Positions 26,305 through 60,764 of a stretch of DNA of 61,000 nucleotides are shown here, piece after piece (the stretch's first letter is position 1; each line of letters opens with the position of its first letter). The notes beneath the pieces are model-generated. The model saw only the letters and a list, made by a program, of their open reading frames with translations, had not been told where the DNA came from and did no database searches. This DNA is from Lama guanicoe (Eukaryota), in NCBI GenBank assembly GCA_013239625.1, contig MU053911.1, forward strand, positions 122,697 to 183,696. The letters are read 5' to 3'. Both the position numbers and the translations under genes were made by a program.

Positions 26305-26349
<45 letters not shown>

Positions 26350-32300: not shown

Positions 32301-35300
32301 ACCTTACTATTTTTTTCCTTACCTACTAATAAGTAATCTATCAAAGATACTTTAAGATCATGCAGATATCCTATTCCCTGTCAAAATTGCCTAGATTCAG
32401 GATGTGTCACAGTGCTTCCCTGAACTAATCTCTGCTTTGAAGCTTCCACAATGGTGGTTCCCCCACTCTGGCACCACCCCTGCGTTTAAGCAGTTGGCAC
32501 CTGGTCTGCCCTGCCCTCACCCGCACTTCTTTCTTCCTCCACTTACTGTTTTGCTGTTGATATGAAGCCATGGATTCTCGTTTTCTCAGCGGTTTTATAG
32601 CTCATACTTTTCTTCTTTTTTAGTTCTAGAATTATCCTAGCCTTGGCAAGAAGGAATTTGTTCAAGATAATTTCTGTGTCCTTATATGACCCCAGTGCTC
32701 CTAGTCACTGAGAAACGCCCTGCTATTTAGTATGACAAGACGTCCCTCGCCGACTTGCACGTTTCCTGTCTCATAGCTGACGTCAGCTGTTGTTCCTAGG
32801 AGCCTTGATGGTTTTAAATGGGAAATGTTGTTAGAAACAAAGATCTGATTGTGCCCATGGAGTGTCTTTGAGGTGTTCTGAGCACCCAGACTAGAAAATA
32901 CACACAAACACGTGCGAATATACTAACATACATGTACATATTCATACACACATAGACCTGCACACACACTCGTGCGTATGTGCATGTGTGTACACACAGC
33001 CATATTTAGAAGTGATGAATTCCTGCAGATGCTTCTGGTTGCGGTCCACCCCTCGGGCGTGTCCTTTCCTCCCTCTGTGCATGGCATCCTTTCTTTCATG
33101 GTGTAAACCCTAACTCTGTACAACACCCGCCTGTTTACTTACTTGCTCAGTCCTGTGTGGCCCTGGCGTTGCTTGTTAACTGATTAGCTCACAGCAGCAG
33201 AGAAGCAAAGCAGGTGGAAGAGTCCGTGATTTTCTCACTCTTCCCGGAGACGGAGATACGGCGCTGTGTTCATGAGGTGGTTGGATCAGGGCTTGCTTTC
33301 TTTTTTAGTTCATTTGGTTCAGTTCTTAAGTTGCTTTCATGTTTACTGCCCTCTTCACATCCTTGTTAGTATAATTGGGGGGGGGATATGCAGAATATTC
33401 ACCTACTTCTAAGAGACACAGAGAGAGCTAGAGCGCGCGCATCCTGTCCTGAACCCCTCCGCCTGCTTCCTCCGTTTGCCTTCTGTTGTGTGGGACTGCC
33501 GGTTTATTGTTTTCTGTTTCATTGTGTAATGTAAGTGCTTCTGTATTTTTCTCAGTTTTCCGCCTAACTTCCCCTCCTTTCTTACTTACCTCAAAGGTAT
33601 TACACTGGATACCTGCTTTTTCACTTTTATTTTTCACTTGACATTCTCTCTTGGAAATTCTTTCATGTCAGTTTGGGAGAACTTTTTTATTCACTTTATG
33701 GCTATGTGTACAGCTGTTTATGTCAGATTATGTACCATTATTTATACCACATCATAGACTATAGTATATATCTTGGGTTATTTAAAGAATAAGTGATGGA
33801 TATTTTAGGTGGTTTTGAATATTATGCAATTATAGATGATGGTATAATGAGTAACCTTGTGCATATGTGTTTTCATTATTTGGCCTATGATTATATAGTA
33901 ACAAAGTATAAATAACAAAACATGAGATTTACAGAAATGTATTCAAAACACTCATTAAAACTTCTCTTGATTTTCATGTCGTATCTAGCACTATGGTAAT
34001 TTATTTTTAACTTTATCAAAATGAAGGATAATTCTGCTGTACACTTGTATGAAGTTGGAGTCTAGGTATTTCATAGTAGATCTGTTTTTTGATTTAGTAG
34101 ATTCAATGCATTTCTTTATGTAGGTTATGATGAAGTGTCAGATGAAAAGGATTCAGTAGCAAAAACTCAAATGCCAGTAAAGAAACAAAGAACTCTCAAG
34201 AGTGAAAGACTCTCTAGTAGGTTTAGTGATCATCAATATTATCAGACACACGGTTTGCAAATGTCTCCCTCTATTCTGTAGGTTGTCTCTTTACTCTCCT
34301 GGTTGTTTCCTTGGCTGTGCAGAAGCTGTTTAGTATGATGCAATCATGTTCGTTTTGTTTCTGTTAGTTGTATTTTGGGGGTTGTTAAAAAAAAAGATCA
34401 TAAATAACTTCACATTATTTTAAATTAAACTCCTCGGAAGATCTTTTTTATTTGCTTCCTGGAGATGTATTTCAGCTTATACTTTGTGGAAATTTTACGT
34501 GTTGATTTGAAGTGTGAGTACCCTAAGATGACCAGAGAAGAGAAGTGAAATTATTGATACAGTTTAGTTGGAATTTCTGATCATAAGACTATTCCACGTT
34601 CAGTATCTGTTAAGGGCAATCCCTTAACAGGTGGATAGTTGACTCACAAAGGGTGTGTGTGCCTTTCAGCCAGCCCTGGGAGATTCCTGTTGCAAAAGGC
34701 CAACAGACCTCTGACCTGTGTTAGTGTCCTTTTGCAGTAGTTCCAGTGGGTGAAGAGATGTTCCTGAGCTCGGTAACCAGAAAGCAGCAGGGGTCAGAGA
34801 GGCCCAGGGAAGGCAGCGCAGGTGGCCTGTTGGAAGTCCTCTGGAGCGTCTTGCTGGTTGGGTTTCCACTCAGAGGGAACAACCCGTATGCTCACCCCGT
34901 CCACGTGAGCCGTCAGGTCCCTGCGGGAAGAACGCAAGTATGTTAGTAGTCAGAGTCCCACCAACCTTCAGGCTCTGTATAACTTGGGGAAGAGAGGGCC
35001 AAGAGATTTGCAGAGGTCTCCTCTGGAGTAAGATGTTACATTTGCTGTAGGTCACATGGCCTGGAGTTTCACTTGGACATGAGGCCCTTGCCTGTATTAA
35101 TGGCCCAGCCGCGTTGTCCCATGTGGATGAGCAGGAGTGCAGCCCTGTGGGATGGCGCCTTCGTCTGGGCCCCGCAGAGGGATGCTGTCAGTGTAGTGGA
35201 AGGCTGGGAGTCCCTCTGAGCGGGCTTTGTCCACGTCCTGCCCGACTGGCTGAAGACACGCAGATGGGGAACTTAGGGAGCCCTGGGGAAGGACGTTAGT

Positions 35301-38300: not shown

Positions 38301-41300
38301 TTTGTTTTCAGCAGCCTTTAACTTGGGACCCAGCTCTGCAGCTGTCCCCATCCAGCGCGCCAGGTCAGGCAAGACAGAAACCAGTGCCGCAGGCACTGCC
38401 TAGACATGCCAGAAAGTTGCATGCAAGTTTCACTCTTTTTATCCCAGTGGAGGAGCTGGAAATTAGAAGGCTTCCTTGTGATTGTGGCGCACTGTGCAGG
38501 GGAGGAGGGGAGGGCTACGATGGGCAAGATGCCATGAGCTTTCCTACCCTTTTTGGTGCAGGTTTTCTTGGTAAATAATCCACGTAAGTGATGCAGATTC
38601 TTAACTGGTTTCTAGAGTTCACATAAAGGTATTTTGGCTGGTGTATGTTGTTAACTCTGTGTCTCCATGGGGGAATGGGGGCCTTGGAACTTCTTTAGTC
38701 CTCTGTCTTGCTGGTGTTTTATGCTGTATTTAAGTTTTAACTTACGTGAAAAGCTTAGGAAAAAGAGAAAATGATATAAAGTGTATTTGATGCCTAGGAT
38801 TTTTAATAAAATGTTGAGACACTTTCAACATTTACTAACTAAGACTCTTCTATTTTCATAGTAGATCTGGCATTATGGTAATCAACATATGACTATAAAA
38901 ATGAGGAAAATGTATGCTGTGCATGAATCTCTGTAAATGTGAGTTAGGGGTCTCACAGTAGATCTGTGTTTCTGTTTGATTATGTGCTTCTCCTTAAGTA
39001 GCTCAGGATAAGGTACCAGACGGAAGTCTTACATATGAGCATCAAGCCTTACCATCGACAACACAAGAGCAAGCAAACACACAAAGGACGCCTGGAGGTG
39101 AAACAGACGTTAGTAAGTATGATAATTTCCGATAAATTTAAATTATTTTAATTAAGCTCAGAAGATTTTTTTATTTCATGAATATGTGTCTGATGTTACA
39201 TTTTATGCAACATTTCTCGTTTCTTGGACCATCGTTGTAAATACGCTAAGACCATTAGAGAACAAAAGTCAGAGAGTTCATAGCTTTCGCTGGTATTGCC
39301 AGCTGTATTGTTTCACAGCCGTGGGGCATACAGTCGGACACTCAGTTTCAGAGCAATGATTTTCTTGCAGAGGGCGCCGCACCCTGTGGCAGTAGTCTGC
39401 TGCCACAGACTGTGACTGGTGAACAGGACTGCTGCTGAGAGCTGTAGCTCAGACAGCAACTGGGGATCAGTGGGTCCAAGGGAAGAGTATCCTGAGAGGC
39501 CTGTGGGGGAGCCTCAAGTGCCTCCTCTGTGGCTCCACTGAAAGGAGTGGTCTTTGTGGTAACCTAATGAGTAGATGCCACCAAGAACCCCCATAAGGAA
39601 GATGAGAGTGCAGGTAGCCAAACCTCCCCACTCGCCGCGGGGCCTCGCTTTCATTTGCTGAGGTGGAGGGGGCCGGGGCTTGACAGGCTTCCTCTTTGGA
39701 GTGGGAGGCTACAGGTCACGCCCAGGGGCTTCGGTTAGGTGCTGGGTAGCTGTAGTAATGGTCCAGTCACGTTGCTGCATGTGGGTCAGGAGGACCGCTG
39801 GCCCTTGCTTGGTGGTGCCCTGGGGGGGATGTGCTCCCTCTGGGTGCAGGAGGTTTCCCAGGCATGGCTGTTTGAAGACAGAGAGTTGAGTTCATGTAGC
39901 TTTCTGGAAGGACATCAGTGAGGCGTTGCAGTCCATTCCCCACGGGGCAAGCTGACCGTGATCTCCATGTGGACAGAGATGCTGCCTCGGGTGTGTCATT
40001 GTCTGTTATAAAACACCGAATCCCCTCGCCTGGACAGTAGCTTCTGTGGCAGTCACAACGTCACAGACAGCTGGTGCCCGGGACTGCGTCACTGAGCTGC
40101 CAGTTGTCACTGGAGCTGTGCACACACAAGGACCTATGCCCAGGTCCACTGAGCTGTTGAATGAAGAAGCAATCTCAGGGACAGTTTCTGCTTCATTAAG
40201 CTGATCAGTAAGGACAATTATTTATTCTTCTTCCTTAGGCATTTCTTTTTGAGAAGCAAGGCACTAGGTTCTGGTAGTTGGATGGTGTCACAGCCTTCCG
40301 CCCGTCTTGCTAAAGTGGCAGGTTCCATCAGGACTTAGGGGTGGTTCAGGTAGGAGTTCGTGTTAGCAGTACATCTATCCCAATGATATGTTCTGTAGTG
40401 GGGGCCACAGCGTAGGGATTTTGAGGTGGCCTGAGTGGACGCACTGTTGATGTGGGGTCTGGGGAGTTTTCCCGTGGTTGGTGGCTTTGGACTACCGCCT
40501 CAGCATTATCACTCCCCCCTCACTGGGTGTCGGGGGTTGTGGGGAACACAGTGGTCAGAGCACCAGCACCCCAAAGGCCTGGGTGTGCAGTTCTCCTGCA
40601 CGTCTCTGCTGAACTCTGACTTCAGCACAAGTCCTCACACTCCCCCTGGGTACCTGGGGCCTGCCCTAACCCGTGGTCTTGTTTATTCTGAAACCCATAG
40701 CATCTTGGTAGAAGCTGGGAGAGTGCTCTGATTCGTGGTGCGTGTCCCTGGGAAAAGCAGAAGCGTGGTGTCTGCGTTAGTCCGGCTCGCCTTACCCCAC
40801 TGCCTGGTCATTGGCACACAGCCCATCAGTCTGCTCCTCTGAGACCCTGTTTTGGGGTAAACACACGCTTTGATCTCTTTAAGTCCTTTGCCCGCATGGT
40901 CCAGGAGGGGTTACTAGCCTGCCGTTTTTACATCACTCTCTCTTCTGATCAGTCCTTTCTTCCTGGTGTTATCCACTACTACGTGTCCAGAAAGTTGCCA
41001 GTTAAGGTCAAGGTTATGCTGTGTTCCACTGCACATATGTGCTACATCTTCTTCATCCGTTCATCTAGTGATGTGCACTTACGGTGTTTCCGTATCTTGG
41101 CAGCTATAAATAGTGTTGCTGTTAATAGTGGGGTGTATATATCTTTTTGAATTAATGTTTTTGTTTTTCTCGGATATATGCCCAGGAGTGGAATCACTGG
41201 GCTATATGGTGGTTCTACTTTTTGGTTTTTGAGAAACCTCCATGTTGTTCTCCGTAGTGGCTGCACCAATTTGCATTCCCACCAAGAGTGTACAAGGGTT

Positions 41301-44300
41301 CCCTTTTCTCCGCATCCTTGCCATCATTTATGTTTGTGTTGTTTTTGATGGTGGCCATTCTGACAGGTGTGAGATGGTGTCTCATTGCGATTCTGAGTTG
41401 CATTTTCCTAGTATTAGTGATGTTGAGCAACTTTTCATGTTCCTGTTGGCTGTCTGCTTTTCCTCTTTTGGAAAAGTGTCTGTTCAGGTCTTCTGCCCAT
41501 ATTTTAAATGGGTTAGGTTAGTTGGTAGTTTGTTTGCTTTTTAACTGAAGTACAGTTGATTTAAAATGTTGGAAAGAAGATTATGTTGTAGACCAATTTC
41601 CCAGACCTTATGAAGATGTTTGATTGAGTTTGGTGTCCAAGAGTAGTGGCACAAATGAACTGAGAAACCTGAGTCTGGTTAAAAAAAAAAATTCTCGTCA
41701 TCTACATCATTATTCCTTCACTGTGTATCCTGGTACCACCAGGGTGGCTCATGGAGTCCCTGTGGTCTTTTCAAGTACACTTAGAACAGGTTCTACACAG
41801 ACAAAGATGAGCCATCTGTCACATCCTGACCAGGACCCAGCCAAGGAAGGAGAGAGTCTTGGATGCTGGCTGTGTTTTTTCGTACTCCTTTCTTGCACCT
41901 CCTTGTGCGATGTGGCCGCTGTCAAGTCCTCCAGGAAAGGGTTTCTGTATTAGCAACGCAACAGGTTTTCAGGATCACTTCCTTAACAAAATACTTCTTT
42001 AAATGTGAAGATGAGCTACCCACATCTCTAAGGTCTCCTCAGGTCACTGGGAGAATTGGTGCTAAGGACTCTGCCTTCCTTTTCATTAAATCTTGCATCT
42101 CAGGAGTCACTGCGTCACGGGCCGAGCATCAGTCCCAGGAGCATTAGAACTAACGGTAGTCATTGAGTGCAGGGTCGCCAACAGCTTTCAGGCCCATGAC
42201 TGATGGAACTGTCATTAACCTAGGAATTGCTTCCCAGTTTTGTCAAAATCCCTCTGTTTGATGTTTAATTTGACCCAGCCACTGGGCATCTTGGCCAGTA
42301 AAACAGGGCCGTTAAAATAGAAGGACTGTAGTTCCTTCAAAGAACAAACAAGTAGCTGTAACGATAAAACAGGGCTCTCCTAAAGCACGTTGCACAGTCC
42401 GCCAGCACCTCCTGAGACGCGGTGACCGGAGTGCTCACGTGCCCGGTGGGCCTCTGACTCTTGTAGATGAGCTGGTCGTGCCCCTTACAGAGCCCTGAGG
42501 ACGCACTGGGGCTCCTTCCAGGAGGGGACTGTGCTCCACTGACCACTCTGATGGCTGCGCTGATTTGTCAGGGAGAGGGCTGCCGGTTCTTGAGTTGGTC
42601 ACTTAAGATAGAAAGTAAACTGAAAGCGGGAGTAAGCGTTAATCACACACTGTGGTAGTAGAAGAGTCTGTACTGGCTGGTGCCAGCTGCACCAGTGCTC
42701 CGTCCCCTGAGAGCAGCCTCGATGGGGGTCAGAGCTAGCCGTGCCGACAGGGCTGGCTGGAGGATGGTCATCACAGCTGGGGGAGCCCCAGACAGAGAGC
42801 TGCTTCTGCCTATTGACTGGAGGCTGAGATGAGGTGGAGGTGGAGAGGGCTAGGAATGCGAAAGCACTGGGGACGGAGTCAGAACCAGTGAGAATGTCTG
42901 CAGGGGCCGGTGGAAGGCGGTCTGGGTCAGTGCGCTGCCCGAGGGGACCCACCAAAGATGCCTCGGCGTCGAGGTGCCCAGACAGAGAACGCAGATCCCG
43001 CCAGCCTGGAGGGGCCTTAGTCCATGACTGCAGCTTCCTCTGGTGTCTGCAGGTCTCTGGCCGTGCCTTGAGTGCAGTGGGGGTGGGGGAGGACTTCCAA
43101 GAAAGACAGCTGCCAGTCAAGCCTTTGTGATTGTCTGAGGTTGGGCCTGAAAGATCACACGGAAGATGTTGGCCTGGGGTCAGTGCCTCAGTTTAAACAC
43201 ATGCGCATCCACATACGGGTGCATGTAGTGAGCTTACCCATACAGTCATCCTCACGTGTGCTTCCATTCCACGTAAGGCAGACTGATCCTGGTCTTTTGC
43301 GTGAACAGGAATATTTAAAAGGGCACTTGTGATATCAGCTGCTGCATACCTGCTTCTCTCAGCTGGACAGTAAACCTCTGTGGAGGTCACAGCAGCATGT
43401 GACACCCGGGTCCAGAGCTGTACTGTGGCCTTGAGCCACACGCATCCATTAAAAAACCCTTCTCACCATTTTTATATCACATCTAGCATTATAATAATTA
43501 TAATTTTTTAAAATGGGAGAAAGTGCTGATGTACGTTAGTCAGTAATTTGAAAGTATAGAGTCAAACAGTATTTCTGTTTTACCACTTGTTGCACTGAAT
43601 ACCTCTCTTTATGTAGCTCATGATGAAGGACCAGCTGAAAACCCTATGCTTGAGCATCAGGGCTCAGTGTTGGAAACCCAGCTGGAAGCAAAGAAACAAA
43701 GACCTTCTGAAGGGAAAAGACTCAGTGGTAAGTATACTAATTATAGATAACTTTAAATTATTTTCAATTAAACTCCTCAGAAGGTCATTTTTCTTTGGTT
43801 CGTGAATATGTATTTGAATATATATTTTATAGAAATCTTATATCTTGACTTAAAGTGTGAATACCCTAATTTTAACTAGGGAACTAAGACAAAATTACCC
43901 GTACCCTTTGGTTGGTATTTCTGGCCCCGTGGGTGTTCCGTGGTCATAGGTCAACCACTCAGTATCCACCATGGTTCTGTAATAGGCCAGTAAATGTCTT
44001 GTAAAGATTGTGTACCTCCCAGCTGGCTCCTGGAGATAGGAGTTTGAAAGCCCAAAGGGGGGCCTCTGCCCTATGTTGGCGGTCTTCTGCCATAGCCTCC
44101 AGTTGGTAAACAGAGATACTGCCGAGTTCTGTAACTCAGAGAGCACGTTGGGTATAAGGGTGCAGGGGGAGGCAGGGCCTCGCAGGGCCTCCATGGCAGC
44201 CTCTTGGTCGTGGCCCCACTGAAGGGAGGTGCCCTCACGGACCCTCCATGGGGAATAGTAGTGTGCACGTCGTGTGACTGCCCCGCCGACACTGGGCCTT

Positions 44301-47300: not shown

Positions 47301-50300
47301 TTTCTCAAGGTAAAAAGCATGCATCCAGGTGTCTTAGAGGAGAGCTGTCTCTCCCCCAGCTCTCTCCCTTTCGTCCTGCAGGTAACCAGCTCCATTATTT
47401 TCTGTCTCACTTATTTCATTTTGTAAAGGTAAGTATCTCTAATTCTCTTTCTTATTTCCCCTTCTTCCTTATCTAGTATGTACCTTGCAAGATTTTCCCT
47501 TTTGGGTTTTTTCCCCTGCTTAATATTGTCTCCTTAAAATCTCTCCAATTCAATTTATAGAGGTTCATTTGATTCCTTTTAACTATCTACACACAGCTGT
47601 TTGAACCATATTTACTGTAATTTATGAAGTTTGTAGTACATACTAGCTTATTCACTCCCATGCATGAACATTTATGTGCAATTACAAGTAATGCTGTAAT
47701 TAGCAAATTGTACATATGCGTTTTATTGGTTGGTCTATGAAGTCAACATGATCTACAAAACATATAAATAACCTAAGAGAAACAGAGACAAATATAAACT
47801 ATATGTAATGCCTAGAAATGTTTATGAAGTAATGAGAAAGCTTCAAAACACATCTATTAAAATGCTTTTCACAATAACCTTACTAGATCTAGCATTATGG
47901 TAATTTAGTTATAACTTCATAAAAATGAGAATATTACTGTGTGTTTGTTATAAATTTGACATATAGAGATTTCACAATAGACGTATTTTTCTATTTAGTG
48001 GACTAAATATGTATCTCACGTAGGTTATGATAGAGCATCATATGAAAATCGTACGCCGGAGCACCAAGAACCAGCGTCAGAAACCCGACCAGAAGCACAG
48101 AGACAGAGAGAGAAGAGACTCCGTAAGTGTAGGTACAGGTAGCTTTAAATGACTGAATATCCATTACAGCCAAAGACCTTGTCCTCTGGCTCATAAATCT
48201 ATTTCACTGTAGATCTTGTGGTAACGTTACGCTTGGACTCGAAGCATAACCTGCCCTCAGGTGACCAGGGCGCCAAGGCTGGAGCGTCCGCAGCTTTGCT
48301 CGGGATTTCCGGTTGTCGTGCTTTTCGTAGCCGTGGGTCATGTGCTCATTATCCACTAACACCAGTAATAGGCAAATAATTGTCCTTCAAAAGGTGTGTG
48401 CCTTTCAGGTAACTCCCCGAAGTGAGGAGCCCACCAGCCCAGTTCAGTCCAGTGTCCTGTGCAGCCGCCTCCTTCCAGAGACTCTAACTGCTGGACAGAG
48501 GAGGTGCTGTGAGCTGTAACTCAGCAGCAGGTCAGGGGCCTTGGGGAAGAGAGGCCGGGGAGGCCCGTTCGCTGGCCTCCAGAGCATCCTGTTGGTTGAC
48601 AGCCACTTAAATGAAGAGGCCTTTTGGGTAACTCAACAGATGGTTGCAGTTAGCACCGCACTGGGGAGCACGTGAGTGCGAGCAGTGGATAATCCCACAG
48701 GTTTCCGGCCCTTCCTGTGTGTGTTGGGGCCGAGAGGACAGGCGCTGGCAGTTGTCACCCCTGCAGTGATGCACGTTGCCATTTTCCCTGGGTTCGCCTG
48801 GGTGCAAGGTCCTTGTACCACATCCCCGTTAATGACCCGGCTGTGTTGCAGAATGCAGGTGAACGTAGTGTCCAGTCCTGGTTCGGTAGTTCCCTTGCCT
48901 GGGCCCACCAGGACGATGTCACCAGTGTAGTGGGAGGCTAATGCCCCATCTGGGAGCGGGACTTGTTTCTGCTTGTGGCCTTGCGAAAGGATGTTTCAGG
49001 TGTATTGCAGCCCATTACACACAAAACTGACCCTGATCATTTACGTGGACAGGGTGCTGCAGAGGGCATTTGCGATACGAGTGGCTTCGCACCTGCTTCC
49101 CTGGGCTCAGGCAGTGGCCTCTGTGGCCGTCACAGTGGCAAGCGGTACCAGCGTCCTGATCTGTCTGCACCACAGGGTTAAACTGCCTGTAACCAAATGA
49201 GTTGACAGGCACCTGAGGCCGTGTACGCAGCTGACTTAGGTACTGACTGGAGGAGCGGTCTCAGAGAGGTCATTGGCTTGCTTAAGCTCAGCAAAGAGGG
49301 CAGTAATTTCTTTCTCTTCCCTTAGTGGCTGTCTTTGAAGGCAGATGTCTAGCACTGGTGGTCTGGTAGGTTTTCAGCCTTCCATCTGCCCCACTGCCAT
49401 GGCCCCAATGGCAGCGCTGCTCCCCAGGGCTGGGAGCTGATGCGAGTTGGAGTTCACAAAGAAGATACGTCTATACTAATAACACACCCAGTCGTGGGAG
49501 CTAGAAAACGAGAGGCTTATGGTGCCCAGGGGAGTCCCCCCAAGCCCATGGCCGGGTGTAAGTGAGGGTCAGGTGGCACCGACTACCCCTCCTCCTGGTG
49601 TCGGAGCTGTGGAGATAACAGTCATCGGCAGGCTGGTATCCAGATGACCCAGGGAGTGCAGGCTCCTCCCACTGCCTCTTGGAAGTCTGAGTTGGCGTAC
49701 ATCCTCAGATGCCACTGGGGACATAGGGACCTTGGCCCAACCCCTAATCGGTTTATTCTTAAACTCAAGCATTCTGGGCAAACATAGGCTGAGCTCTCTG
49801 ATTCTGGGAGGGGCAGAGACAGGAGCACGTGTCCTGGCACTAGTGTCCTCACCGTTTGGTTCTCGTGGGGCTGCGTGTTGGCCCCCGTGGCTTCCTGGCA
49901 TAAGATGCTCGGTGGAGAGTCCGTGCCTCCCATCCTCGGGGTGCTGTCGCTGAGGAGTTAGGCAGTGCCAGGGTGCTCGTTGTGGGGGGTGAACCTCTCA
50001 GGAACCAAATGTCAGCCAGCAGCAGGAGGACTGTGTCAGGTGTTGGTGTCTTTTCCCTGTCCCTTTCCTTGACCTCTCTGGGCAAAGTGGCCCCTGCCGG
50101 GGCACTCAGAACCCGGGGTCTGCAGTGACGTGGCCAGCAGCTGCCGCTGTCCCTCCCCACGTCCACAAGGGGCGCGCCTCCAGGGTGGCGGCTCCGTCTC
50201 CTCAGGCTGCTGGTCAGGTGAGACTGAGAGATCTGGATTCTTTTTCATTGAACACGAGTCTCAGAAACGCTGTATCACAGCCTGTCCACCAGTGCTACAG

Positions 50301-53300
50301 ACGTGCTGAGAGCTGCCCGGAGCCACTGGCGCAGCTGGGCCGGCAGTGTCTGCAGTGACTCGTGTGCGCAGCGACACGGCTGAGTGGTGTTTCACTTTGT
50401 ACAGCTTCCCTTTCCTTCTTGCTCGAAAGGCAGCATGCTGGATACTCTCTTCAGGTGTTTCCCCACTAGGCATCATTCCTGAGAAACGTTTCCAGGTCAG
50501 CTTGTTGGGGTCCTTTTCGCTCCTGTTAGACGTGTATGTGCAGCTGCTTGTACCGCATTACGTCCCGTGTCTGTGTTATCACGGCTTCCGTACGGTACTC
50601 AGTCTCAGTCTCCTGTGCTTGGGTGTTCAAGTCATTCTGAGTGTCCTGCCGTTACAGGTGTGCCGTCATGAAGAAGCTTGTGCACATGTGCTTTCATTGC
50701 TTGGAATATATAGTAACTAAGAATATTAAAAAACTAAGAAAATCAGGACCAATATAAAACATATTTAAAGTCGAGGAATATTAATGATTTGATAAAACAC
50801 CTTACACACACACAGCCATCTAAACTTTTCTCACAGTTTTCATGTCAGATCTCCCATTATGGTAATTTAATTACAACTTTATAAAAATGAGAGAAAGTGT
50901 GGCTGTTCACTGGTAATAAATTGAAATATGGAGATTTCACCGTAGATCTCCTTTTTATTTTGGGGACTGAGTTCTTCTCTTCATGTAGCCTGGGATGGAG
51001 GACCAGACGGAAACCCTGAGCTTGAGCCGTGGGACTCAGTGTCACAGCCAGAAATTCCAGTGAAGAGCGCGCGCTCACAGAGGGGAACAGCTTCCAGTCA
51101 CAGAAAGCATTCAGTTATTTTACAGTAACCCCGCTGGAAGATTTTTGCATCTGGGTTCACACATAGGTGTTTGGGGAAACGCTTATAGACGTTTAGGCTC
51201 TGACTAAAGCGTGAGTGCCACCGCTGTTCCGAGGTCTGTAACGCAGGCGCCGGATGAGGCACGGGAGGCCTGGTCGAGGGCCTTCCGGGGGTCCTCTTGG
51301 ATGTGTCCTTGCTGAGAGGACAGCAAGGGCACCACACAGGAAAGTGGAAATGCAGGTAGTTGAAGAACTCTTCACTGTCTTTTTGTTTGTTGCGGTTGAA
51401 TGGCCAAAGCGTGGCCGTCTCCTCCCCTGGAGTGAGGTGTCACGCCCCGTAGAGACCATGGCCCGGAATTTCACTAGGGTGCCAGGCAGCGGGGCCCTGT
51501 CTGTGCTGACGGCCCGGCCAGGAGCTGTGGGCGGTCGGCAGGGCGTCTGCTCCTTCTTGGTTGGTGGCCACCTCAGGTTTACTTGGGCAGCGGGCAGCAC
51601 GCCCTCTCGGAGCAGGCCCCTCAGAGGTCATGACTATGCGTTAACTGAGTCTCTGCACTGATGGCAGACGCCTGAGCGGCCTGTAGCCACGTGGAAGACC
51701 AACGTGGGCTGCTGCAGCTGACTCCATGTGAGTTAAGCTGCCCTTATCATTTGTGTGCAGAGGGATGCAGCAAAGGGCATTTGACTGGTCGGCTGCTGGA
51801 CGTCGAGTCCTTCTGTTAGGAAGACAGCCTGTGTGACAGCTGCAGTATCAGGTCCCATCAGGACTCGGGGCTGCACTGCAGACCTGGCCTGCCAGAACCG
51901 TCCACCGAATCACCTGCACCCGAGGCTGTGTGCGAAGGTCAAGTTCGTTATTAGAGTTTTCTCTTCGTTGAGCTCAGCAATGACAGCAGTTATATCTTTT
52001 TGTTCCAGGAATGTGTTTTGGGGGAGACAGGTGCTGGGCACTGTCCAGTGTGGAGGTTTACAGTCTTCCACGTGCCCCACGAGCAGTTCCCCCAGGGCTT
52101 AGAGCTGAATACATCTGCACCAATCCGCACTCAGTAGTGAGGGCTATAAATACGGAGTCTTGTGATTGAGAGGATGTACTCAGAGTAGTGTTTAACTACC
52201 GGTTGTCTCGGTGACGGCCTCAGATGGAAAAGCAGGGAGCGTTACCTCTTTCCGCCAGTACGTGGGCTCAGATGTTATGGGGGTCAGTCACCTGTGCAGT
52301 GATGTCCTAAAAGGCCCTAGAAATGCAGTACTCCCCCACCCCGCTTTGAATTCTGACCTTGGCGTGTGTTCTCAGACCACCACTGCTGACGTAGGAATCT
52401 TGACCTGGCACCTATTTTTTTTTTTTTTGGAGCTGAGAAGTCTGGGTGGAAGGAGTGAAGGGTTCTCTGAGTCATTCCAGCGGCACTTGGAGGAGCAGAG
52501 GGAGGAGCATTAGTATCAGTCACAGGGGCGTCACAGTTTGGCTGTTAGCTGGGGACGTGTGCTGGGGTCCACGGCCAGTGCCTGGCCTGGAGGTCTTCAG
52601 TGGGAAGTCCAGCAGCGTTCTCCTGAGAGTCCACTGTTGAGTAACCAGACCTAGAGACTTGGAGGGGTGGCTCTTTAACCAGATCATCCTGGAGTGGGAG
52701 CCCTTTACCATCTTCAGGTCTGCTCAGTGGTCAGACAGTACTGTCTTGTACTGCTGCTTTTTCCATGCCTGGAAATCTGCCAGTTAAGATCCGGACGGTG
52801 CCGTGAGCCAGCTGACGCCGCTCTGTAAGTAGGTTTAACGGGGCTGGGGAATCAGCACGGTTGGCCTGGATGAGACTGGAAATCTAAGTCTGGTTAAGGT
52901 CTGTACTATTCCTGTGATCCCTCCGTGTGCCACTTGAGAAACCAGTCTGGTGCTGCACGGAGACTTCAGAGCCTCCTCATGTGGTGATCCAGATGTGCTT
53001 TCAGGGGCAGGGACCTCACAGTGGGTGGGCTACCCTGTTGGCGCCAAAGTAGTACCCAACGAAGGAGTGAGGAAGGTCTCAGATGTGCGAGTCTCTCGTC
53101 TTCCTTTTCCTCTGCCCCCTGGGGCAGTATGGGGCTGTCAGGTTCTGCAGTGGGGTCCTGCAGTGACAAACCCTACGCTAAGTTGAGCAAGATCACCCCC
53201 TTTTTCATGCTACCTGAGTTGCTAAGCAAAGCAATCCTCAGGACTCCACGTGCTTTCTCATTTAAGTGTGAGTCTCAGTAACTCCCTGCATCAAAGGCTG

Positions 53301-56300
53301 TCCCTTAGTCCCAGGGGTGTGCTACAGCTAACAGCAGGCACTGGTGCAAGTCAGCATGCAGGGTCTGCAACGTTTTTGGACCCATCAGTAGCTATACAAC
53401 TGCTTCCCTAGTTTTCTCACAGACCATCTGTTGAGTCTTCCATTTGACTTACTGAGCATCTTGGTTGGTGAATCAGGCTAAAGAGAAAGACAGTTGTTTT
53501 CCTTCAGAACTGAAAAGCTTATGGAAGCAACCCATTGACAGATGATTGGATTAAGAAGATTTTATACACACACACACTGTAGAATATTACTCAGCCATAA
53601 AAAAGAATGAAATACTGCCATTTGCAGCAATGTGGGTGGACCTAGAGGATATTATATAGTGAAGTAAGTCAGACAGAGAAAGACAAATACTGTATGATAT
53701 CACTTATGTGGAATCTAAAAAATGATACAAATGAATATATATACACACAAAACAAACAGACTCACAGATACCGAAAACACACTTGTTATCAAAAGGGAAA
53801 CAGAAGAGGACAAAGACAAATTAGGAATATGAGATTGACAGATATAAACTGCTATGTGTAAAATAGATAAGTAACAAGGATATACTGTATGGCATGGAAA
53901 TATACCCATTCTTTTGTAATAATGTGCCATGGAATATAATCTGCAAAATACTGAATCGCCATGCTGTATACTTGAAACTGACACAGTATTGTGAATCAGA
54001 TACATTTCAATTAAAAAAAGCGCGTGTGAACAATGCGGTGGCTCTCTCCAGAGCCCCTCTAGTACTTCACGGGACTCGTTTACCTCACAGGCAAAGTGCC
54101 CTGTCGGTGTCCTGCAAGTCACCTGGTGGTGCCTCCCTGCCCACCAGTCCTGCCTCCTCCTAGCACCTCTCAGAAGAGCATTGTGCTTCACGGACCAGCC
54201 TTCTTTTTGTACTAATTTGCAAGGGAGACAGAGAGAGAGAGAGAGACAAGTTTCTTGAGTTGGTCTATTCAGGTAACAAGCCAAACAATTGCACAAAGCA
54301 ACAATTAACCCTTATTTACCTATTGGTTTTTATTTTTAGTTCTATGAGTTTGTGTTAGCGTAAAGAGAAAAGTGGCACCTGTGCATGCATATTAGACGCC
54401 TGGAGATGTCAGTGTCACAGCCTCTCTTGACCCACGTGCCCCCAGAGCACAGGCGGTGGTCCCGACGGGGGCGCCGGCTTCACGGCTGCTCTGTTCCAGC
54501 CCTTGGAGAAGCACTCGCCAAGGGCTGGACCCAGCAGTGCAGACAGAGCTGAGGGACGGCCTCACAGCAGAAGGGACCCCGACAGAGGCTCTTGTCACGT
54601 TTAGGGACCCTACGCCGGGGGAGCTGGATTCTGAGTGTCATCAGCACATCTGCTCATTTGCTCAGTCCTGTAATGCTTCTCAGACGGTTTCAGAATTGCT
54701 CAGCACACACCACTAGAAAAACCAACCAGGGTTTAAAGGATGTCATGATTTGTCTGCGGTCTGCCTCCCTACGCGCCCGACCCTCCTGTCCGAGAGACGG
54801 CTTGTGTTAAATGTTGCATGGATGGGTCACTGCTTTTATTTTCCCTTCAGCAGTTTCGTTTCATTTGCTTTCTTGTTTTCATCCCGTCTTCTTAGCCTTC
54901 TTGATTTAGGTTTATTTTGAAATACATAGAAATGAACCGAAAAGCTGTGCTTAGAGGGCTGCCGCCCCTCCCTTGGTCCTCCCTCTAATTCTGGGGGTCA
55001 CCAGGCATGCTGTTCTGTGACAGCTTTCCTGTGTCTCCTCTGTTTTTTCTGTTTTTCTCATTTCTTTTTTTTTCTTACCCAGAGAATACAAGTTTGCCCC
55101 TTTTCAATTTTCATTTTTTAACTTCCTGTTATTTCTAGAAATTCCTCCAAGTCAGTTTATGGAGATCTGTTTCATTGGGGTTATAGCCCTGTGTACAGCT
55201 ATTTGTTCCACATTATTTACTGTACTTTGTATTATACCACAGTGCATAATATATACCTGATTTATTTAACTAATCTCTGCTTGAAAATTTATAGGTTTTG
55301 AATATTTTACAATTGCAAATATGTTATAATGAGTAACTCTGTACATAATCATTTTTATTTTTAGTTCTATGAATATGTATTAGCCTAAAGTATAAACAAC
55401 CTAAGAAAATTAGACTGTATATATATTTATATATGTTTATATATATGTAAGACACCTAGAAATATTAGTGATACTTTCAACATAAACGCATTAAAAATGC
55501 TCTCACAATTTGTATGTCACATCTGACATTATGGTAATTTACTTATAACTTCATCAGAGTGAGAGAAAAATTTTGCTGTATGTTATCAATTTAAAATTCA
55601 AAGATTTCACAGTAAATCTGTTTTTCTGTTAAGCAACTAAACACATCTCTTTATGTAGCTCGTGACGACGTTCCAGACAGAAACCCTGTGCTTACGCCTC
55701 AGGACTCAGTGTTAAAGCTCCAAATGCAGGTACAGAAGCAAGTAACGTCTGGAAGGGGAAGACCTGATAGTAAGTATAACAATTAGAGGTGACTTAACAT
55801 TTAAAAAAATTAATCAGATCTTTTTTCTTTAGTTCATGAATATGTATTTGACCATATAATTTATAGAAATTTTCCATTTTGATAGAAATGTGAATACCAT
55901 AAGACAACTAGAGAACAAAAAGCATGTAACATTTGGTTGGAGGCTATTTGCTGACATGACTTCTGCGCTCAGTGTCCACCAAGGCTCGGTAACCAGTCAC
56001 GGGTCCCCCAGGAGGTGTTTGCATCCAGTCCTCTGGGAGATCATGGGTCTCAAAGCCCAGCTGGCGCCTGGCTCGTGAGGCAGTTTTCTTTCACCCCAGG
56101 CTCCAGTTGGCAGAGAGACGGCTGAGACCGTCGACTTAAAAGGCAGTGGATTCAAGGGGGTGAGGAAAGGGTTGCCTGTGTAGCCAGTTGGAAGGTCTCC
56201 AGGGCATCCTGGTGTCTTTTCGGTACTTGATTGACGGGTGCTGTCATCAGGGTGGCCATGCAGGGATCCATGAGGACGGGTAGCTGAACAGCCGCATCAA

Positions 56301-59300
56301 CTGCTGGGCATCCTTCATACTTGCTGGGGCTGAGAGCTTGAGCATGATAAAAACTTGGCAAATTGTTGCCTCTGGAGAGGGATATACTGCCCCTTCAAAG
56401 TTTATTCCCAGGAACTTCACGTGGGTCATAGGTGCTTGTGCCTTGTCCGTATTAATGTCCTGATGTGTTGCTACGTGTGGGTCGGAAGGGCGTCCAGCCT
56501 GGTTGGGCAGTACCCTTGTCTGGACCCACCAGGAGGGTGTTACCAGTGTTGTGGGAGGCTGGCGCCCTGTCTGGGAGTGGGACTCCTTCCTGCTTGTGGC
56601 CTCGTGGAAGGACATTATAGGTGCATAGCAGCCCATTAAGCACGAAGCTTGCTGACCGTGATCATTATGTGGACGGGGTGCTGCAGAGGGCATCTGTGAT
56701 GTGAATGGCTTCACACCTGCTTCCCCGAGCTCGGGCAGTAGCCTCCGTGGCCGTCAACAGCGGCAGGCAGTGCCTGCCCCGCGTCAAGGGCCGTGCTGCA
56801 CTGATGAGCCATGGATGCCTGACTGAGTTTCCAGGGGCCTGAGGCCTTGGGCGAAGGTCAGATGTGAACCTCGGCTTCCTTAAGCACAGCAGTGAGGGCA
56901 GCTTTTTTTTTTTTTTCAATTCCTGAGATAGCTGGTGCTGTTTTGAGAGACAGAGCGCTAGCACCAGCAGTGTGGTAGGTCTCCAGGCGTCCATATGCCC
57001 CACAGAGACGGTCCCGCCTGCAGCAGCTTCCTTCAGGGCTTGGAGTGCCTGCAGTCAGGGGTGCACACGACAGGGCACCGGCCACAGCAGTCCCTGCAGT
57101 GGGGGGCGCCCCTGCAGGAGTGGGGGGCTGCAGCTGCAGTCAGGTCCGGGTATGGGGCTTGGTGGTGGTGTCTTCAGACAGGAAGTCAGAGAGTTTTGTT
57201 AATTTCCCCCTCATTCACATGCAAGGGGGCTTGGGGGTCACAGGCCCCTGTACACCATTGTCCAAAAGGCCCAAGAAATGCAGTCCCCACCCCCACGTCT
57301 GCTTTGAAATGTGACCCTCGGCATAGGGCCTCCATTCCTCACTGTGGATGAAAGGACACTGGACGTTTCATCGTCTCATTTTCTTTAAGCCAGAAAGGCT
57401 GGGTAAAACTTGGCGGGGGGCTCTCTGACCCCGCCGGAGCTTACAGGGCGAAGGAGAAGAAACCGCCCTTGCGTTAGTCGTAGGGGTCCCTGCCGGGTGG
57501 CCCCGGAGCAGCTGCCACTTGGCCCCTAATGGCACCCTGCGTGGCCGTGAGCTCCCAGGTGCAGAGCCCAGTCGCCTCTCCTTTTGAGCTCCCATTGTGT
57601 GAAAACCAGACCCGGAGGTATATTTGGGAAAGCCCTTACCTGGATCCCCCGGGAGTGTGTGCTCATAGCATGGTGATTTTCATGTCACTCTCTGTGACAT
57701 TCCTTCTCCGCTGTTTTGGCAGGAGTCACTTTTTTCCTGCCCAGGGATTTGTCGGTGACAGTCTGGATTATGTCACTGACGAATGGACAGGCTTAGAAGG
57801 AGGTTTATTGAGCTTGATAACCAGCAGGGGGCGCACTGGTGAGCTAGAGTCTCGTTAACAGCCTTCCCGTCCACAACTGTCACTAAGGCCCAGCAGTGTG
57901 GCTCACAGTGTGCTGTCACCTCTGGAAGCTCAGTCCAGACACTCGTCTTAGTCCTAGGGAGCCCATCGTGGTGGGGGGGGGCCAGAGCTGTCAGAGCCCA
58001 GGTGGTTCCCAGCTGGGGAAGAGGGGCTTGTCTGCTCACCGCAGCCTCCTTGAGCTGACTTTCTGCTGTCAGGACACTCTTAAGGAGGGAGGGACTTTAT
58101 AGTGACACAGCCCACAAGTTACACTGTCTCTCACTACCTGTAAGATTACCTCCTTGAAATCAGTGCCTTCTGTACTTTGCTTGCTTGCAAACCTTATGAA
58201 TTAAACAAATTATCAGACTAGAATTAGAAAGTACACAAAAGGAAGAAAAGGAAAGAAGATCACCTCCCTCACCATGCAATCCGACCAGGTCTCTGAGGCC
58301 TCTTTACACCCCTGGGCCTGTGACCCAGGGTCCTGTCCTCACTGCGCTAAGTCATGAGTGTCAGCAGCGTGCTGTGCTGTGGCCTGCCTGTCGTCGTCCG
58401 GGGCCTCTTTAACATGCAGCAGTTGCTGGGTGCGCTTAGCTTGCAGAGTACGCGGCAGGTTTTGTCCCGTCATCAGAGGACAGTAGCAATAGCCAAGGAA
58501 TCGCTTCCCTAGAGTTCCCAGAGCCCCTCTGTTGCATCTCTGATTGGACCCCCCGGGCATGTGGGCAGGGAGTCTGGGGCTGAAGAGAAGGACCACTGGT
58601 CCCCTGCCACCCAGAAGCTTCCATAAGCAGCCGGCTAGCGCTCCCCAGAGGGCCGCACGGCATCCCTGACTCAGCGCTTCTGAGCCTCGCTGGTGTGGCT
58701 GGCCAGGCGTGCTGCTGCACCCTCAGACTCTTGCAGTTGACCAGCTAGTGCTCCCCAAGAAGCCAGTAGACTTCCCTAGCATCTCCCCAAAGTGCCCTGG
58801 GGGATCTCCATGCTTTTTGCTTTTCCAGAAAGACATTGTGCTGAATTGGGCCACCCCGCCTGCCGCCATCTGTCAGTGAGAAGGAGCTGCCAGTTGTGCA
58901 GGTGGTCTGTAAAGACACCGAACAGAACTGACAGTAGCAGTTAAGCCTTTATTCAGCCACTGCAGTAATATAAGTGGGAGTCTAAACAGAAAAGGGCACC
59001 AGCTCCACCAGTGCTCCAGCCAGTCTGTCATCTTTGCATGAAATGATGGCGTGCAGGCGCCCAGTGTATGAGTGCGGATGGGAAGCGAGTGTCTCGCTCT
59101 GTGTACAGATGCTTACGTCTGACGTAAATACCCTTGCCTCCCATTGCAGCAGTACTTAGTTGTACCGGCGCATAGCTGTGGTGTGTGTGTATCCAGCTTA
59201 TTCCCCCAGTCTCCTGTGCTTGAACACTTGGATGGTTGTGAAGTGTGTTGCAGTTAGAATGACCTTGTGTGCGGCATTTAAATTGCTTGTTCTGTTATTA

Positions 59301-60136
59301 TGTATCAACCTGACATAAACAGCCCGTGAAAGCTGAAGACCAGTATACAATGCATTTGCTGTTTAGGGTTATTTATGAAATAATGAGACTGCTTCAACAT
59401 CATCCATTTTTGTCACAGATCTAGTATTATAATAATTTATTTTATAAAAATGAGAGAAAACGCTGTTGAATACTTGTTATAAATTTGAAATCTAGAGATT
59501 TCACAATAGATGTGTCTCTCCGTTTAGCGGACTAACTGCACCTCTTTATAAAGGTTACTACGGAGCACCAGATAAAGACCTTACGTTTGAGAATCAGGAT
59601 TCAGTTTCAAAACCCCAAGTGCAAGTAAAGAAACAAATAACTTCCAAAGGGGAAAGACGCCACAGTAAGTACGATAATTAAAGGAAATTTCACATTTTTA
59701 AATGAAACTCATCAGAACATTTTTTTCCCCTTTGGTTCATGAATATGTATTTGAGCACATATTTTATAGAAATAAAAATAAATGACCTAAGGTGTGAATA
59801 CCCTGAGATAATTAGAGAACCGAAGTAAACGCAATGATCCCGTTTGGTGGGCATTGGCATAGTCAGTAATTACTAAGTAACAAGACACACACTTGTGAAA
59901 ACTCTTCACCTGATTTTTCTCACGTTACCTACCTGGAAAGAAAAACTGATGATTATTTGGCATATCCAGATGTTCCATTACACATGTATTTTTTTTCTAC
60001 TTAGCATTTCCTCTTGAAAACCAGAAAAACAACACGACAACACTTGGAAATCTCCCTCCTGAGAGGGAAGATTTATTTTCGAGAAACCAGTCTCAGGCTA
60101 CGAAACTTGGAGCTACCAGAAAGGAGGATCTGGATA
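20116..60136 (+). CDS. CCDC7: Internal multi-exon portion of coiled-coil domain-containing protein 7 (long isoform, C10orf68 region); 12 exons in this window, gene extends beyond both ends
   Basis: AG/GT-bounded exons with mutually compatible phases (2-0, 0-1, then ten 1-1). Translations match, in colinear order, my recollection of human CCDC7: [10 protein letters not shown]~[26 protein letters not shown]~[34 protein letters not shown]~[26 protein letters not shown]~TFPLEIKK. Identity is from memory, not a search. Confidence 0.9.
21231..21303 (+). CDS. CCDC7: CCDC7 exon (73 nt, phase 0 to 1): [24 protein letters not shown]
   Basis: ttttaacttttgttcttaAG| acceptor, G|GTaaga donor; open frame; phases fit both neighbours. 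Confidence 0.9.
21640..26230 (-). mobile_element. Cluster of nested older L1 (L1M-type) fragments
   Basis: L1MB-like 3' end at ~21975; ORF2 fragments [22 protein letters not shown] and [19 protein letters not shown]. Confidence 0.85.
26308..26348. repeat. (CA)n microsatellite, about 20 units
   Basis: Directly visible. Confidence 0.97.
26862..27210 (+). mobile_element. MER2-like non-autonomous TcMar-Tigger DNA transposon
   Basis: ccctcggtatccacaggggttggttccaggacc...tactttaaatcatctctaga...ggttgaatctgcggatgtggaacctgcagatgcagagg matches recalled MER2 ends and core. Confidence 0.85.
27660..27758 (+). CDS. CCDC7: CCDC7 repeat exon A1 (99 nt, phase 1-1): (A)[32 protein letters not shown]
   Basis: ctctttatgcAG| acceptor, |GTaaga donor, shared upstream flank of the A-exon family. 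Confidence 0.88.
28240..28368 (+). CDS. CCDC7: CCDC7 repeat exon B1 (129 nt, phase 1-1): (G)[42 protein letters not shown]
   Basis: tgtttttctgtttAG| acceptor, |GTaagt donor; resembles recalled human [28 protein letters not shown]. Confidence 0.88.
30585..32900 (-). mobile_element. Old L1 fragments (ORF1-like region ~30590-31100; L1MC-like 3' region from ~31660)
   Basis: tttgacaatttcactatgatatgtttgcgtgtggatctctttgag and agaaataattttaaatttatagaaaagtt are typical antisense L1M segments. Confidence 0.6.
34124..34216 (+). CDS. CCDC7: CCDC7 repeat exon A2 (93 nt, phase 1-1): (S)[30 protein letters not shown]
   Basis: tttctttatgtAG| acceptor, |GTaggt donor; open; 18 nt shorter than the 111-nt copies (in-frame). 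Confidence 0.85.
34234..34395 (-). mobile_element. ~160-bp internal L1 ORF2 fragment inserted just after exon A2
   Basis: tttgcaaatgtctccctctattctgtaggttgtctctttactctc...gctgtgcagaagctgtttagt is antisense L1 ORF2; absent from the other repeat units. Confidence 0.8.
34590..37700 (-). mobile_element. Class III (ERV-L-like) provirus remnant, copy 1 (pol, gag region, LTR ~37130-37700)
   Basis: Shares blocks with other copies (aagggtgtgtgtgcctttcag cf. 48390; gccaattaagataacaaaccaaac cf. 46196). Confidence 0.7.
36851..37054. repeat. GC-rich minisatellite: alternating 34- and 36-bp units forming a 70-bp dimer, about 3 copies
   Basis: ccccagtgacccacctgttccccggcacctcctg starts at 36851, 36921 and 36991, with 36-bp variants between. 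Confidence 0.95.
39002..39112 (+). CDS. CCDC7: CCDC7 repeat exon A3 (111 nt, phase 1-1): (T)[36 protein letters not shown]
   Basis: cttctccttaagtAG| acceptor, |GTaagt donor; open. Confidence 0.85.
39290..43180 (-). mobile_element. Class III provirus remnant, copy 2 (interrupted by L1 at ~41030-41575; LTR from 42566)
   Basis: cagtagcttctgtggcagtcac (~40035) cf. 49110 and 56737; LTR end tgtcagggagagggctgccggttc cf. 58871. Confidence 0.7.
41030..41575 (-). mobile_element. L1 ORF2 3' fragment
   Basis: Minus ORFs [14 protein letters not shown] and [13 protein letters not shown]...[13 protein letters not shown]. Confidence 0.9.
43617..43727 (+). CDS. CCDC7: CCDC7 repeat exon A4 (111 nt, phase 1-1): (T)[36 protein letters not shown]
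   Basis: ctctctttatgtAG| acceptor, |GTaagt donor; close match to the recalled human repeat [20 protein letters not shown]. Confidence 0.9.
43905..46790 (-). mobile_element. Class III provirus remnant, copy 3 (best preserved): pol tether/RNase H region, PBS-Ser, LTR from 46168
   Basis: ORF 43895-44344(-) [54 protein letters not shown]...PEIP aligns with the recalled ERV-L pol motif WSLWQ..QRRPLGFWSK..Y.PFEKQLLACYWALVETE.LT.GH...PELP; PBS at 46147-46164. Confidence 0.85.
48024..48122 (+). CDS. CCDC7: CCDC7 repeat exon A5 (99 nt, phase 1-1): (G)[32 protein letters not shown]
   Basis: tatctcacgtAG| acceptor, |GTaagt donor; open. Confidence 0.85.
48300..50520 (-). mobile_element. Class III provirus remnant, copy 4 (no LTR seen)
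   Basis: ORF 48633-48908(-) [18 protein letters not shown]...[15 protein letters not shown] resembles ERV-L RT (WEINP.KIQGP.TSVKFLG...PPTTKKEAQRLVGL); 48960-49135 is closely similar to 56580-56760. Confidence 0.8.
50989..51096 (+). CDS. CCDC7: CCDC7 repeat exon A6 (108 nt, phase 1-1; weak donor, possibly a decaying pseudo-exon): (P)[35 protein letters not shown]
   Basis: Same upstream flank and ttctcttcatgtAG| acceptor; frame open; donor is |GTcaca instead of GTaagt. Confidence 0.55.
51300..54320 (-). mobile_element. Class III provirus remnant, copy 5 (interrupted by a sense L1; LTR truncated at ~54320)
   Basis: gtcctaaaaggccctagaaatgcagtactcccccaccccgctttgaattctgacct (52304) cf. gtccaaaaggcccaagaaatgcagtccccacccccacgtctgctttgaaatgtgaccct (57260). 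Confidence 0.75.
53530..54019 (+). mobile_element. L1 3'-end fragment in sense orientation with short poly(A)
   Basis: gaatattactcagccataaaaaagaatgaaatactgccatttgcagcaa...catttcaattaaaaaaa. Confidence 0.9.
55659..55769 (+). CDS. CCDC7: CCDC7 repeat exon A7 (111 nt, phase 1-1): (x)[36 protein letters not shown]
   Basis: ctctttatgtAG| acceptor, |GTaagt donor; resembles recalled human [28 protein letters not shown]. Confidence 0.9.
55940..59020 (-). mobile_element. Class III provirus remnant, copy 6 (RT region, LTR from 58871)
   Basis: ORF 56247-56714(-) [23 protein letters not shown]...[21 protein letters not shown] is an ERV-L-type RT C-terminal motif. Confidence 0.85.
59554..59664 (+). CDS. 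CCDC7: CCDC7 repeat exon A8 (111 nt, phase 1-1): (S)[36 protein letters not shown]
   Basis: ctctttataaAG| acceptor, |GTaagt donor; open. Confidence 0.88.
60005..60136 (+). CDS. CCDC7: CCDC7 repeat exon B2 (132 nt, phase 1-1): (T)[43 protein letters not shown]
   Basis: ttttttttctacttAG| acceptor, |GTaagt donor; resembles recalled human [34 protein letters not shown]. Confidence 0.9.
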
Positions 60137-60764
60137 GTAAGTAGTTAAATATAAATCTTACAGTTATTTCTAATTAAACCCAGATCACTGTTTTGTTTAT
60201 GACTGTGTTTTCAACTCTCTGCTTCTGTAGTAATTATCACAATGACCTTGGATCTTTGCTGATGATTTATCTGTTTCTGTTAGAATTACTGAATTTGATG
60301 CCTTAAACCTCACACTTGGTGGATTTCTCTTTCTCCTTGTACTTGTGGCAGGCTTTGGTTTATATCTTATGACACTCTATTATTTACGTGCATATAAGTT
60401 TTAAGTTGATAGTATTTTCAGGAGACAAGACATTTTGTCCTAATGAAGAGACTAACTCCATCATTTTTATAGTTTTTATTTATTTTCCTTTAAAACTGTC
60501 TTATCTGCTGTCAGTGTTTCTTCTGGTTGGTGTTTGCATGATACATTTTTTTCTGACCTTTAATTTTCCTGTATGTTTATGATTTTGCTGTATCTCTTAC
60601 AAAGAAACTTATAATTATATGTATTTTAAAGTTCAGCCTGATTCTTGTCTTTTAATTACCTCTCCTAATCATCTGTGGTTTAATTACTGATATTTTTAGG
60701 TGTAATTCCACCACTTTCTTCGCTCTTGGCCCATTTTTCCTATCTGATATGTTTCTTTCACTCT

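Follow-up and report, generated by a model that had tools for sequence, protein, structure and literature searches.

The window analysed here, a stretch of 61,000 nucleotides (nt) from contig MU053911.1 of Lama guanicoe, is part of camelid CCDC7 (coiled-coil domain-containing protein 7), with the gene on the plus strand. A short coding exon recurs in it head to tail, and six of the repeated units carry, in the intron behind the exon, an antisense remnant of a retroviral pol gene. Because the units are colinear, a segment of this kind lies in each of the six, and the segments stop at a common point, it is likely (with a probability that we put at roughly 0.85) that the coding exon and a single truncated retroviral fragment were amplified jointly.

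The gene was recognized from the open frame through the exon at 43617, which matches CCDC7 of Vicugna pacos at 97% and that of Camelus at 90-92%; the exon peptides of the window are present letter for letter in the alpaca CCDC7 model. An alignment of eight regions of the window resolved a single repeated exon with conserved splice flanks, arranged head to tail in eight copies. These A-type copies are named c27, c34, c39, c43, c48, c51, c55 and c59, and units U34 to U55 each run from the like-numbered exon. All seven exon starts given by the original prediction (34124, 39002, 43617, 48024, 50989, 55659 and 59554) were exact, each directly preceded by AG, and an eighth copy was found at 27660, beyond the range of that prediction. 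On the plus strand the copies occupy 27660..27758 (c27, 99 nt), 34124..34216 (c34, 93 nt), 39002..39112 (c39, 111 nt), 43617..43727 (c43, 111 nt), 48024..48122 (c48, 99 nt), 50989..51096 (c51, 108 nt), 55659..55769 (c55, 111 nt) and 59554..59664 (c59, 111 nt). Every one of the eight lengths is a multiple of three, and the same phase is open in all eight exons. The two outermost copies have no cassette after them and are each followed by a B-type CCDC7 exon that the camelid models use, at 28239..28367 (+) behind c27, found by tblastn, and at 60007..60159 (+) behind c59, where it is colinear with 27.6-29.1 kb.

The idea that the exon copies are protein repeats fits five of the seven exons first named. 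With c27 included, six of the eight copies are used by camelid CCDC7 protein models at a 95-100% match (100% for c27); c34 and c51, both open and placed by splice alignment and phase, are used in none of the four models. The donor of c51 is weak (GTCACA) and that of c34 reads GTAGGT; what c34 matches best is a repeat coded in the CCDC7 of gray whale and hippo. Divergence among the four paralogues of 111 nt is about equal at the three codon positions (0.36, 0.44 and 0.36), and the 200 nt upstream of the exon are 64-66% alike between paralogues, compared with 59% for the exon itself. On these comparisons frame and splice region are kept and the amino-acid sequence is not, a pattern pointing to selection that was limited to splicing signals and frame. 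Directly after c34 there is a private insertion of ~150-170 nt (34217-34400) that is absent from the other seven copies.

Self-comparison of the window revealed homology extending well past the exons. The six units between the exons at 34124 and 59554, with lengths of 3.0-4.9 kb, were compared pairwise by permissive blastn. Colinear chains were obtained for all 15 unit pairs, each built of 2-6 blocks that together take in 13-56% of the shorter unit (identity 59-66%), which bears out the earlier claim of six introns with a common layout. Among the controls, reversed units gave no chain (0/15) and five other stretches of the window gave two (2/30), both stemming from one younger dispersed repeat at ~10.9-11.4 kb. 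Long single alignments join c48 to c55 from -995 to +1434 and c39 to c48 from -251 to +1732, and the shared motifs quoted in the original prediction were recovered exactly at 49056/56680 and at 49082/56706, with 0.01 and 0.00 matches expected by chance. What links the outer copies c27 and c59 to the inner units is limited to the exon, ~150-1400 nt upstream and ~190 nt downstream; between themselves they have 1.5 kb in common, B exon included. Because the outer copies match the inner units only around the exon, the layout is read as A-B, then six units of A plus cassette, then A-B. A conserved pre-exon flank is typified by 46767..48023 (+) and is also present at 32884-34123, 54778-55658 and 26288-27659; an L1 origin had been proposed for it, and the DNA search of the genome gave array-internal matches and two short dispersed ones only, which lends no support to that origin.

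Younger dispersed repeats that occur both in the upstream window and in individual array units lie at 1-1895, 12042-13964 and 22942-24119, at 10800-11411 and 40957-41553, and at 53515-54225; they explain part of the differences in unit length. A tandem repeat at 36850-37054, with a GC-rich unit of 34-36 nt in 5.6 copies (87% matches), is found in U34 only. The array as a whole (34000-59500) forms a GC-rich island, with a GC content of 0.50 against 0.395 for the AT-rich positions 1-33000.

The retroviral nature of the cassette was approached through its relatives elsewhere in the searchable Lama guanicoe assembly (2.05 Gb, 55231 contigs). On other contigs, three dispersed loci match the cassette at 56-63% along 1.1-1.8 kb, and neither exon nor flank has a counterpart in them. 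With blastn at E < 1e-3 to dispersed retrovirus-like loci, the antisense pol remnant announced by the original prediction was found in six of six units. In one dispersed element, L025, the minus strand (corresponding to the minus strand of the window) reads Pfam families in pol order, RVT_1 (E 0.0096), RT_RNaseH_2 (E 0.0016) and rve (E 7.5e-5), all of them below the curated cut-offs and with ~0.6 false matches of any family expected among the 58 frames. In another, L026, motifs of protease, reverse transcriptase (RT), the end of RNase H and integrase were recognized by eye, again in order. Intact beta-like and gamma-like retroviral loci of the Lama guanicoe genome served as reference pols. In Smith-Waterman alignments the minus strand of 34602-35330 reached the LPQG...YxDD region in nine of the nine motif-bearing references (z 2.6-6.3). 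For the dispersed copy L024, RT motif A gave z 7.2 and 7.3 against beta-like references and 0.4-0.7 against two gamma-like ones, and RT motif C gave z ~5 against two gamma-like references and 1.1-2.7, at a different site, against beta-like ones; the best motif A and C matches were equalled in none of 200 shuffles. A Pfam scan of L024 returned nothing, a homologous-protein search with a 71-residue RT frame returned no scoring candidate, and the ESM Atlas pointed to RVT_1 clusters at scores of 0.83-0.86, which were taken as a lead only. Judged by these alignments, the remnant is demonstrably of retrovirus-type pol.

The antisense segment takes up ~1.3-1.8 kb of each unit and starts ~190 nt past the exon. 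On the minus strand it lies at 34621..36000 in U34, where the clearest RT palm motif is found at 35170-35312, at 39383..40697 in U39, 43943..45477 in U43, 48297..49782 in U48, 51250..52796 in U51 and 56004..57767 in U55. The limits in U39 and U55 come from blastn homology to the dispersed loci; in U51 positions 51973-52796 match those loci, and the position of the lower part follows solely from colinearity with U48. An extra fragment of the cassette RT region, 176 nt long and ~70% identical to 49026-49164, is present at 43264..43439 (-), just upstream of c43.

Both sides of the cassette boundary can be read. The exon flank of ~190 nt described in the original prediction was recovered, in that three units cease to match the cassette-free copy c59 between +299 and +305, counted from the exon start (with an exon of 111 nt), namely at +299 in U39, +302 in U43 and +301 in U34 once its private 150-nt insert is removed. 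From the other side, homology to L025 begins at its position 4344 in U48 (+305) and at 4345 in U43 (+326), and the registers of U34, U39 and U55 against L025 agree with this start. In the alignment the six inner units share sequence on either side of the junction, and it is there that c27 and c59 diverge. The array copies span L025 from 4344 to about 6170-6308, which comprises the RT connection, RT, protease and a few hundred bases more; L025 itself continues ~1.5 kb further into the rest of RNase H and the integrase, and no array copy has that part. The only reasonable reading of these limits is one junction, made once.

The class of the virus was addressed by several comparisons. Betaretrovirus-like pols gave the RT remnant somewhat higher scores than gammaretrovirus-like ones, a difference by which the class is not settled. 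Family searches of the genome for integrase and dUTPase led to elements that, where examined or paired, were beta- and gamma-like. A dUTPase downstream of the integrase is a feature of ERV-L. In the open reading frames after the integrase of L025 or L026, both decayed and possibly cut, no dUTPase match was found, and those genomic dUTPase matches that could be paired with an integrase on the same contig all lie, by our reading, upstream of it. Some cassette motifs give an ERV-L-like impression, and the ERV-L (class III) assignment of the original prediction is a candidate one. The unit tails contain an 80-nt block for which seven or more dispersed copies were counted (77-88% identity) and that in L026 matches 3' of the integrase, 230 nt past the end of the internal homology. 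The block is possibly a fragment of a long terminal repeat (LTR); the region that holds it is 46169..46275, with further instances at 37134-37270 and 58871-59012.

In an unrooted maximum-likelihood tree of six array and three dispersed copies, the two groups are split at 98/98. Within the array the inner branches measure 0.02-0.07 and the terminal ones 0.26-0.57; the dispersed copies have terminal branches of 0.26-0.29 and are 62-65% alike. The tree of the exon flanks is star-like as well, with terminal branches of 0.24-0.45, so star-like that its congruence with the cassette tree is uninformative except for U48 and U55. These two are the only clear sisters (99/98; 77% over 360 nt), and the closest genome relative of the U48 copy is the U55 copy. 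The array copies also have longer branches than the dispersed ones, and their base composition differs, with a GC content of 0.55-0.57 and an observed/expected CpG ratio of 0.28-0.45 in the array against 0.47-0.52 and 0.11-0.25 in the three dispersed copies.

A number of observations weigh against the co-amplification of a single retroviral fragment. A Pfam search of 238 open frames of at least 55 residues (33184-61000) gave noise-level matches only, with RVT_1 at E 0.077 for one frame, and long frames with their stops read as X gave nothing. Sequence searches of the PDB with array copies returned one retroviral polymerase at E 0.82 and otherwise no match, a kinase or other chance matches, and tblastn with 35 intact retroviral open frames from 14 loci around strong integrase matches gave none below E 0.049. 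The three dispersed relatives are a lower bound from the genome search. The 'gag-side' sequence that had been claimed holds as far as the protease region and a few hundred bases, and no further; the LTR claimed for most units is hinted at by the 80-nt block, with no LTR pair or target-site duplication defined. The age proposed below would be drawn from protein repeats and branch lengths. One outcome that the original prediction had named as refuting did occur on raw identity, in that the array copies are not closer to each other (47-59.5%) than to dispersed copies (47-59%), and the unrooted tree is compatible with a single origin and no proof of it.

The noise-level results of these direct searches are what would be expected if the GC-rich cassette were not retroviral at all and its RT-like motifs were chance features of old, unique intron sequence. 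This is very improbable, given that the cassette has relatives on three other contigs over 1.1-1.8 kb, that L025 reads RVT_1, RT_RNaseH_2 and rve in pol order, and that the motif alignments hit the right RT positions with z of 5-7; because the searches with array copies were weak, the retroviral identification is based on the dispersed relatives. The pattern of raw identities, together with the dispersal of the cassette family in the genome, would suit another history in which the exon array came first and six copies of one retrovirus family then inserted independently, one per intron. Such a history would have to yield six copies that share both orientation and exon register, two readable limits (U48 and U43) within 1 nt of one internal point, with agreeing registers in U34, U39 and U55, and flanks that are colinear on both sides; six events with identical truncation are not credible, and we regard this alternative as exceedingly improbable. 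Co-amplification of one fragment is left standing by the raw identities because the phylogeny is star-like and array and dispersed copies split at 98/98. Given the shared junction, the shared truncation and the colinear flanks, the identity pattern would therefore mean that insertion, activity of the family and amplification were close in time. What holds of the earlier proposal, a provirus captured in an exon-bearing unit and then expanded, is the co-amplification of one truncated fragment, as indicated by orientation, exon register, truncation point and colinear flanks.

Two further alternatives concern the array itself. Growth mainly by multi-unit blocks (for example U34+U39 giving U43+U48) in place of single-unit steps is suggested by common offsets of 9.0-9.15 kb (U39 versus the U48 side) and 9.3-9.5 kb (c34 versus c43), and by the sister relation of U48 and U55 at 99/98. 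Any colinear neighbouring pair gives such offsets, however, neither tree joins U34 with U43 or U39 with U48, and the inner branches are 0.00-0.07 and mostly unsupported, so that block-wise growth seems unlikely. An assembly artefact could be suspected from the fragmentation of the assembly into 55231 contigs and from an annotated alpaca protein with one repeat more than the assembly. The units cannot, however, be mis-assembled copies of one sequence, because they differ by 35-50% and each has private insertions, and the same repeats occur in protein models from other assemblies and species; the probability of an artefact is next to nil.

The distribution of the repeats among mammals was examined with a profile of the eight exon peptides, applied to CCDC7 proteins at E < 1e-4. 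It counted 8 A-type repeats in human, horse and otter, 9 in gray whale, 7 in hippo, 10 in tamandua (anteater) and 13 in Bos. In whale and hippo the best matches of the window exons keep the repeat order, c34 and c51 among them, both being coded in these species; for horse, human and anteater that order is less distinct. Commonly quoted neutral rates for mammals provide the basis for converting branches to time. On that scale the branches of the exon flanks (0.24-0.45) and of the dispersed copies (0.26-0.29) point to an age of the order of 100 million years. The event is taken to be old because the trees are star-like with long branches and because 7-10 repeats are found across placentals. The array goes back at least to cetartiodactyls and probably to placentals; a further gain of repeats, again probable, would have followed in ruminants.

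The alpaca protein model P0001 contains an extra A-type repeat plus 27 residues (residues 806-868) between the repeats of c55 and c59, which the Camelus models lack. Within 55770-59553 of the window this repeat has paralogous matches of 43-53% only, and the search of the whole assembly found nothing; assemblies that differ in copy number, or a gap, could account for it. At its C-terminus (residues 1064-1122) the same model matches a dispersed repeat at 11073-11248 and 41208-41372 (-) at 49-73%, and this part of the model may be repeat-derived. In a dromedary model, P0003 (210 residues), 46 residues match 57703-57840 (+) at 78%. This interval lies at the distal end of the U55 retroviral segment, antisense to the virus, and has a plausible acceptor and a GTGAGC donor in the window; exonization of the cassette is possible, as is a prediction artefact.

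The following history would accommodate the observations. A CCDC7 intron of an early ancestor of placental mammals would have harboured, in antisense, a copy of an endogenous retrovirus that was active at the time. Rearrangement may then have removed all but the part with protease, RT and RT connection, which came to abut a point ~190 nt downstream of a 111-nt, phase-symmetric exon. The resulting unit, consisting of pre-exon flank, exon, 190 nt, truncated retroviral fragment and tail, would then have undergone several head-to-tail duplications within a short time, with ~3 kb of intron copied along. Each duplication would have added an in-frame repeat of ~37 residues, the dead retroviral piece being a passenger. 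The copies would afterwards have decayed independently, younger repeats and deletions bringing the units to 3.0-4.9 kb, and c34 and c51 presumably dropped from use in the camelid gene models. We infer the order of these events, non-allelic (unequal) recombination as their means, and the passenger role of the cassette. A more active part, in which the cassette of ~2 kb was itself a homologous substrate for gain and loss of CCDC7 repeat exons by non-allelic recombination, is hinted at by the range of 7-10 repeats in most placentals, the 13 in cattle and the extra alpaca repeat. This appears decidedly unlikely; if true, a retroviral fossil would have set the pace of length evolution of a testis protein.

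The array offers a clean, datable example of protein repeat growth, and its six paralogous dead-virus copies, together with the dispersed copies, constitute an internal clock that ties amplification to the activity of a virus family. It also bears on annotation, since two intact-looking exon copies are unused in the camelid models and one gene model draws an exon from the cassette. Full-text literature searches on CCDC7 returned no description of the exon array or its retroviral cassette among the listings and abstracts that they gave, and passages of PMC13035864 concern a chimeric RNA and not CCDC7 gene structure. The novelty of the architecture for CCDC7, which had been suggested, holds to the extent that no published description was found in these searches; a passenger element in a tandem duplication is at the same time an ordinary kind of case. 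Since any tandem duplication copies the mobile elements inside its unit, no new mechanism is revealed here, and the co-amplified cassette is an expected by-product of tandem segmental duplication within a gene.

Several known systems invite comparison. ERV-L and its relatives, which make up class III, are ancient mammalian endogenous retroviruses with a foamy-virus-like pol. The cassette family resembles them in an age about that of the placental radiation, in being preserved as decayed copies only, and in the order of protease, RT, RNase H-like connection and integrase in its dispersed relatives. Membership in class III would be a possibility; where ERV-L has a dUTPase, none was met beside the integrase in L025 and L026, the two longer dispersed copies, which are decayed and may be cut. 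A parallel to the co-amplification is found in the human salivary amylase gene copies, which carry a retroviral insert co-amplified as a passenger. In both cases a single insertion would have been copied later along with host sequence, which is why all copies share their junctions. In CCDC7, unlike in amylase, the copied host part is a coding exon within one gene, whereas in amylase it is an entire gene, and nothing points to a regulatory role in CCDC7. Intragenic tandem exon arrays that arose by segmental duplication are known from the kringle IV-2 unit of LPA and the Olduvai exon doublets of NBPF. Like these, the CCDC7 array consists of head-to-tail units of exon plus intron, its protein repeat number varies by lineage, and copy number can change without a frameshift because the exons are phase-symmetric. 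It differs from them in that its copies are very old, 35-50% diverged and with no sign of recent homogenization, and in that its unit has one exon of ~37 codons, with about half of the recognizable unit being a retroviral remnant.

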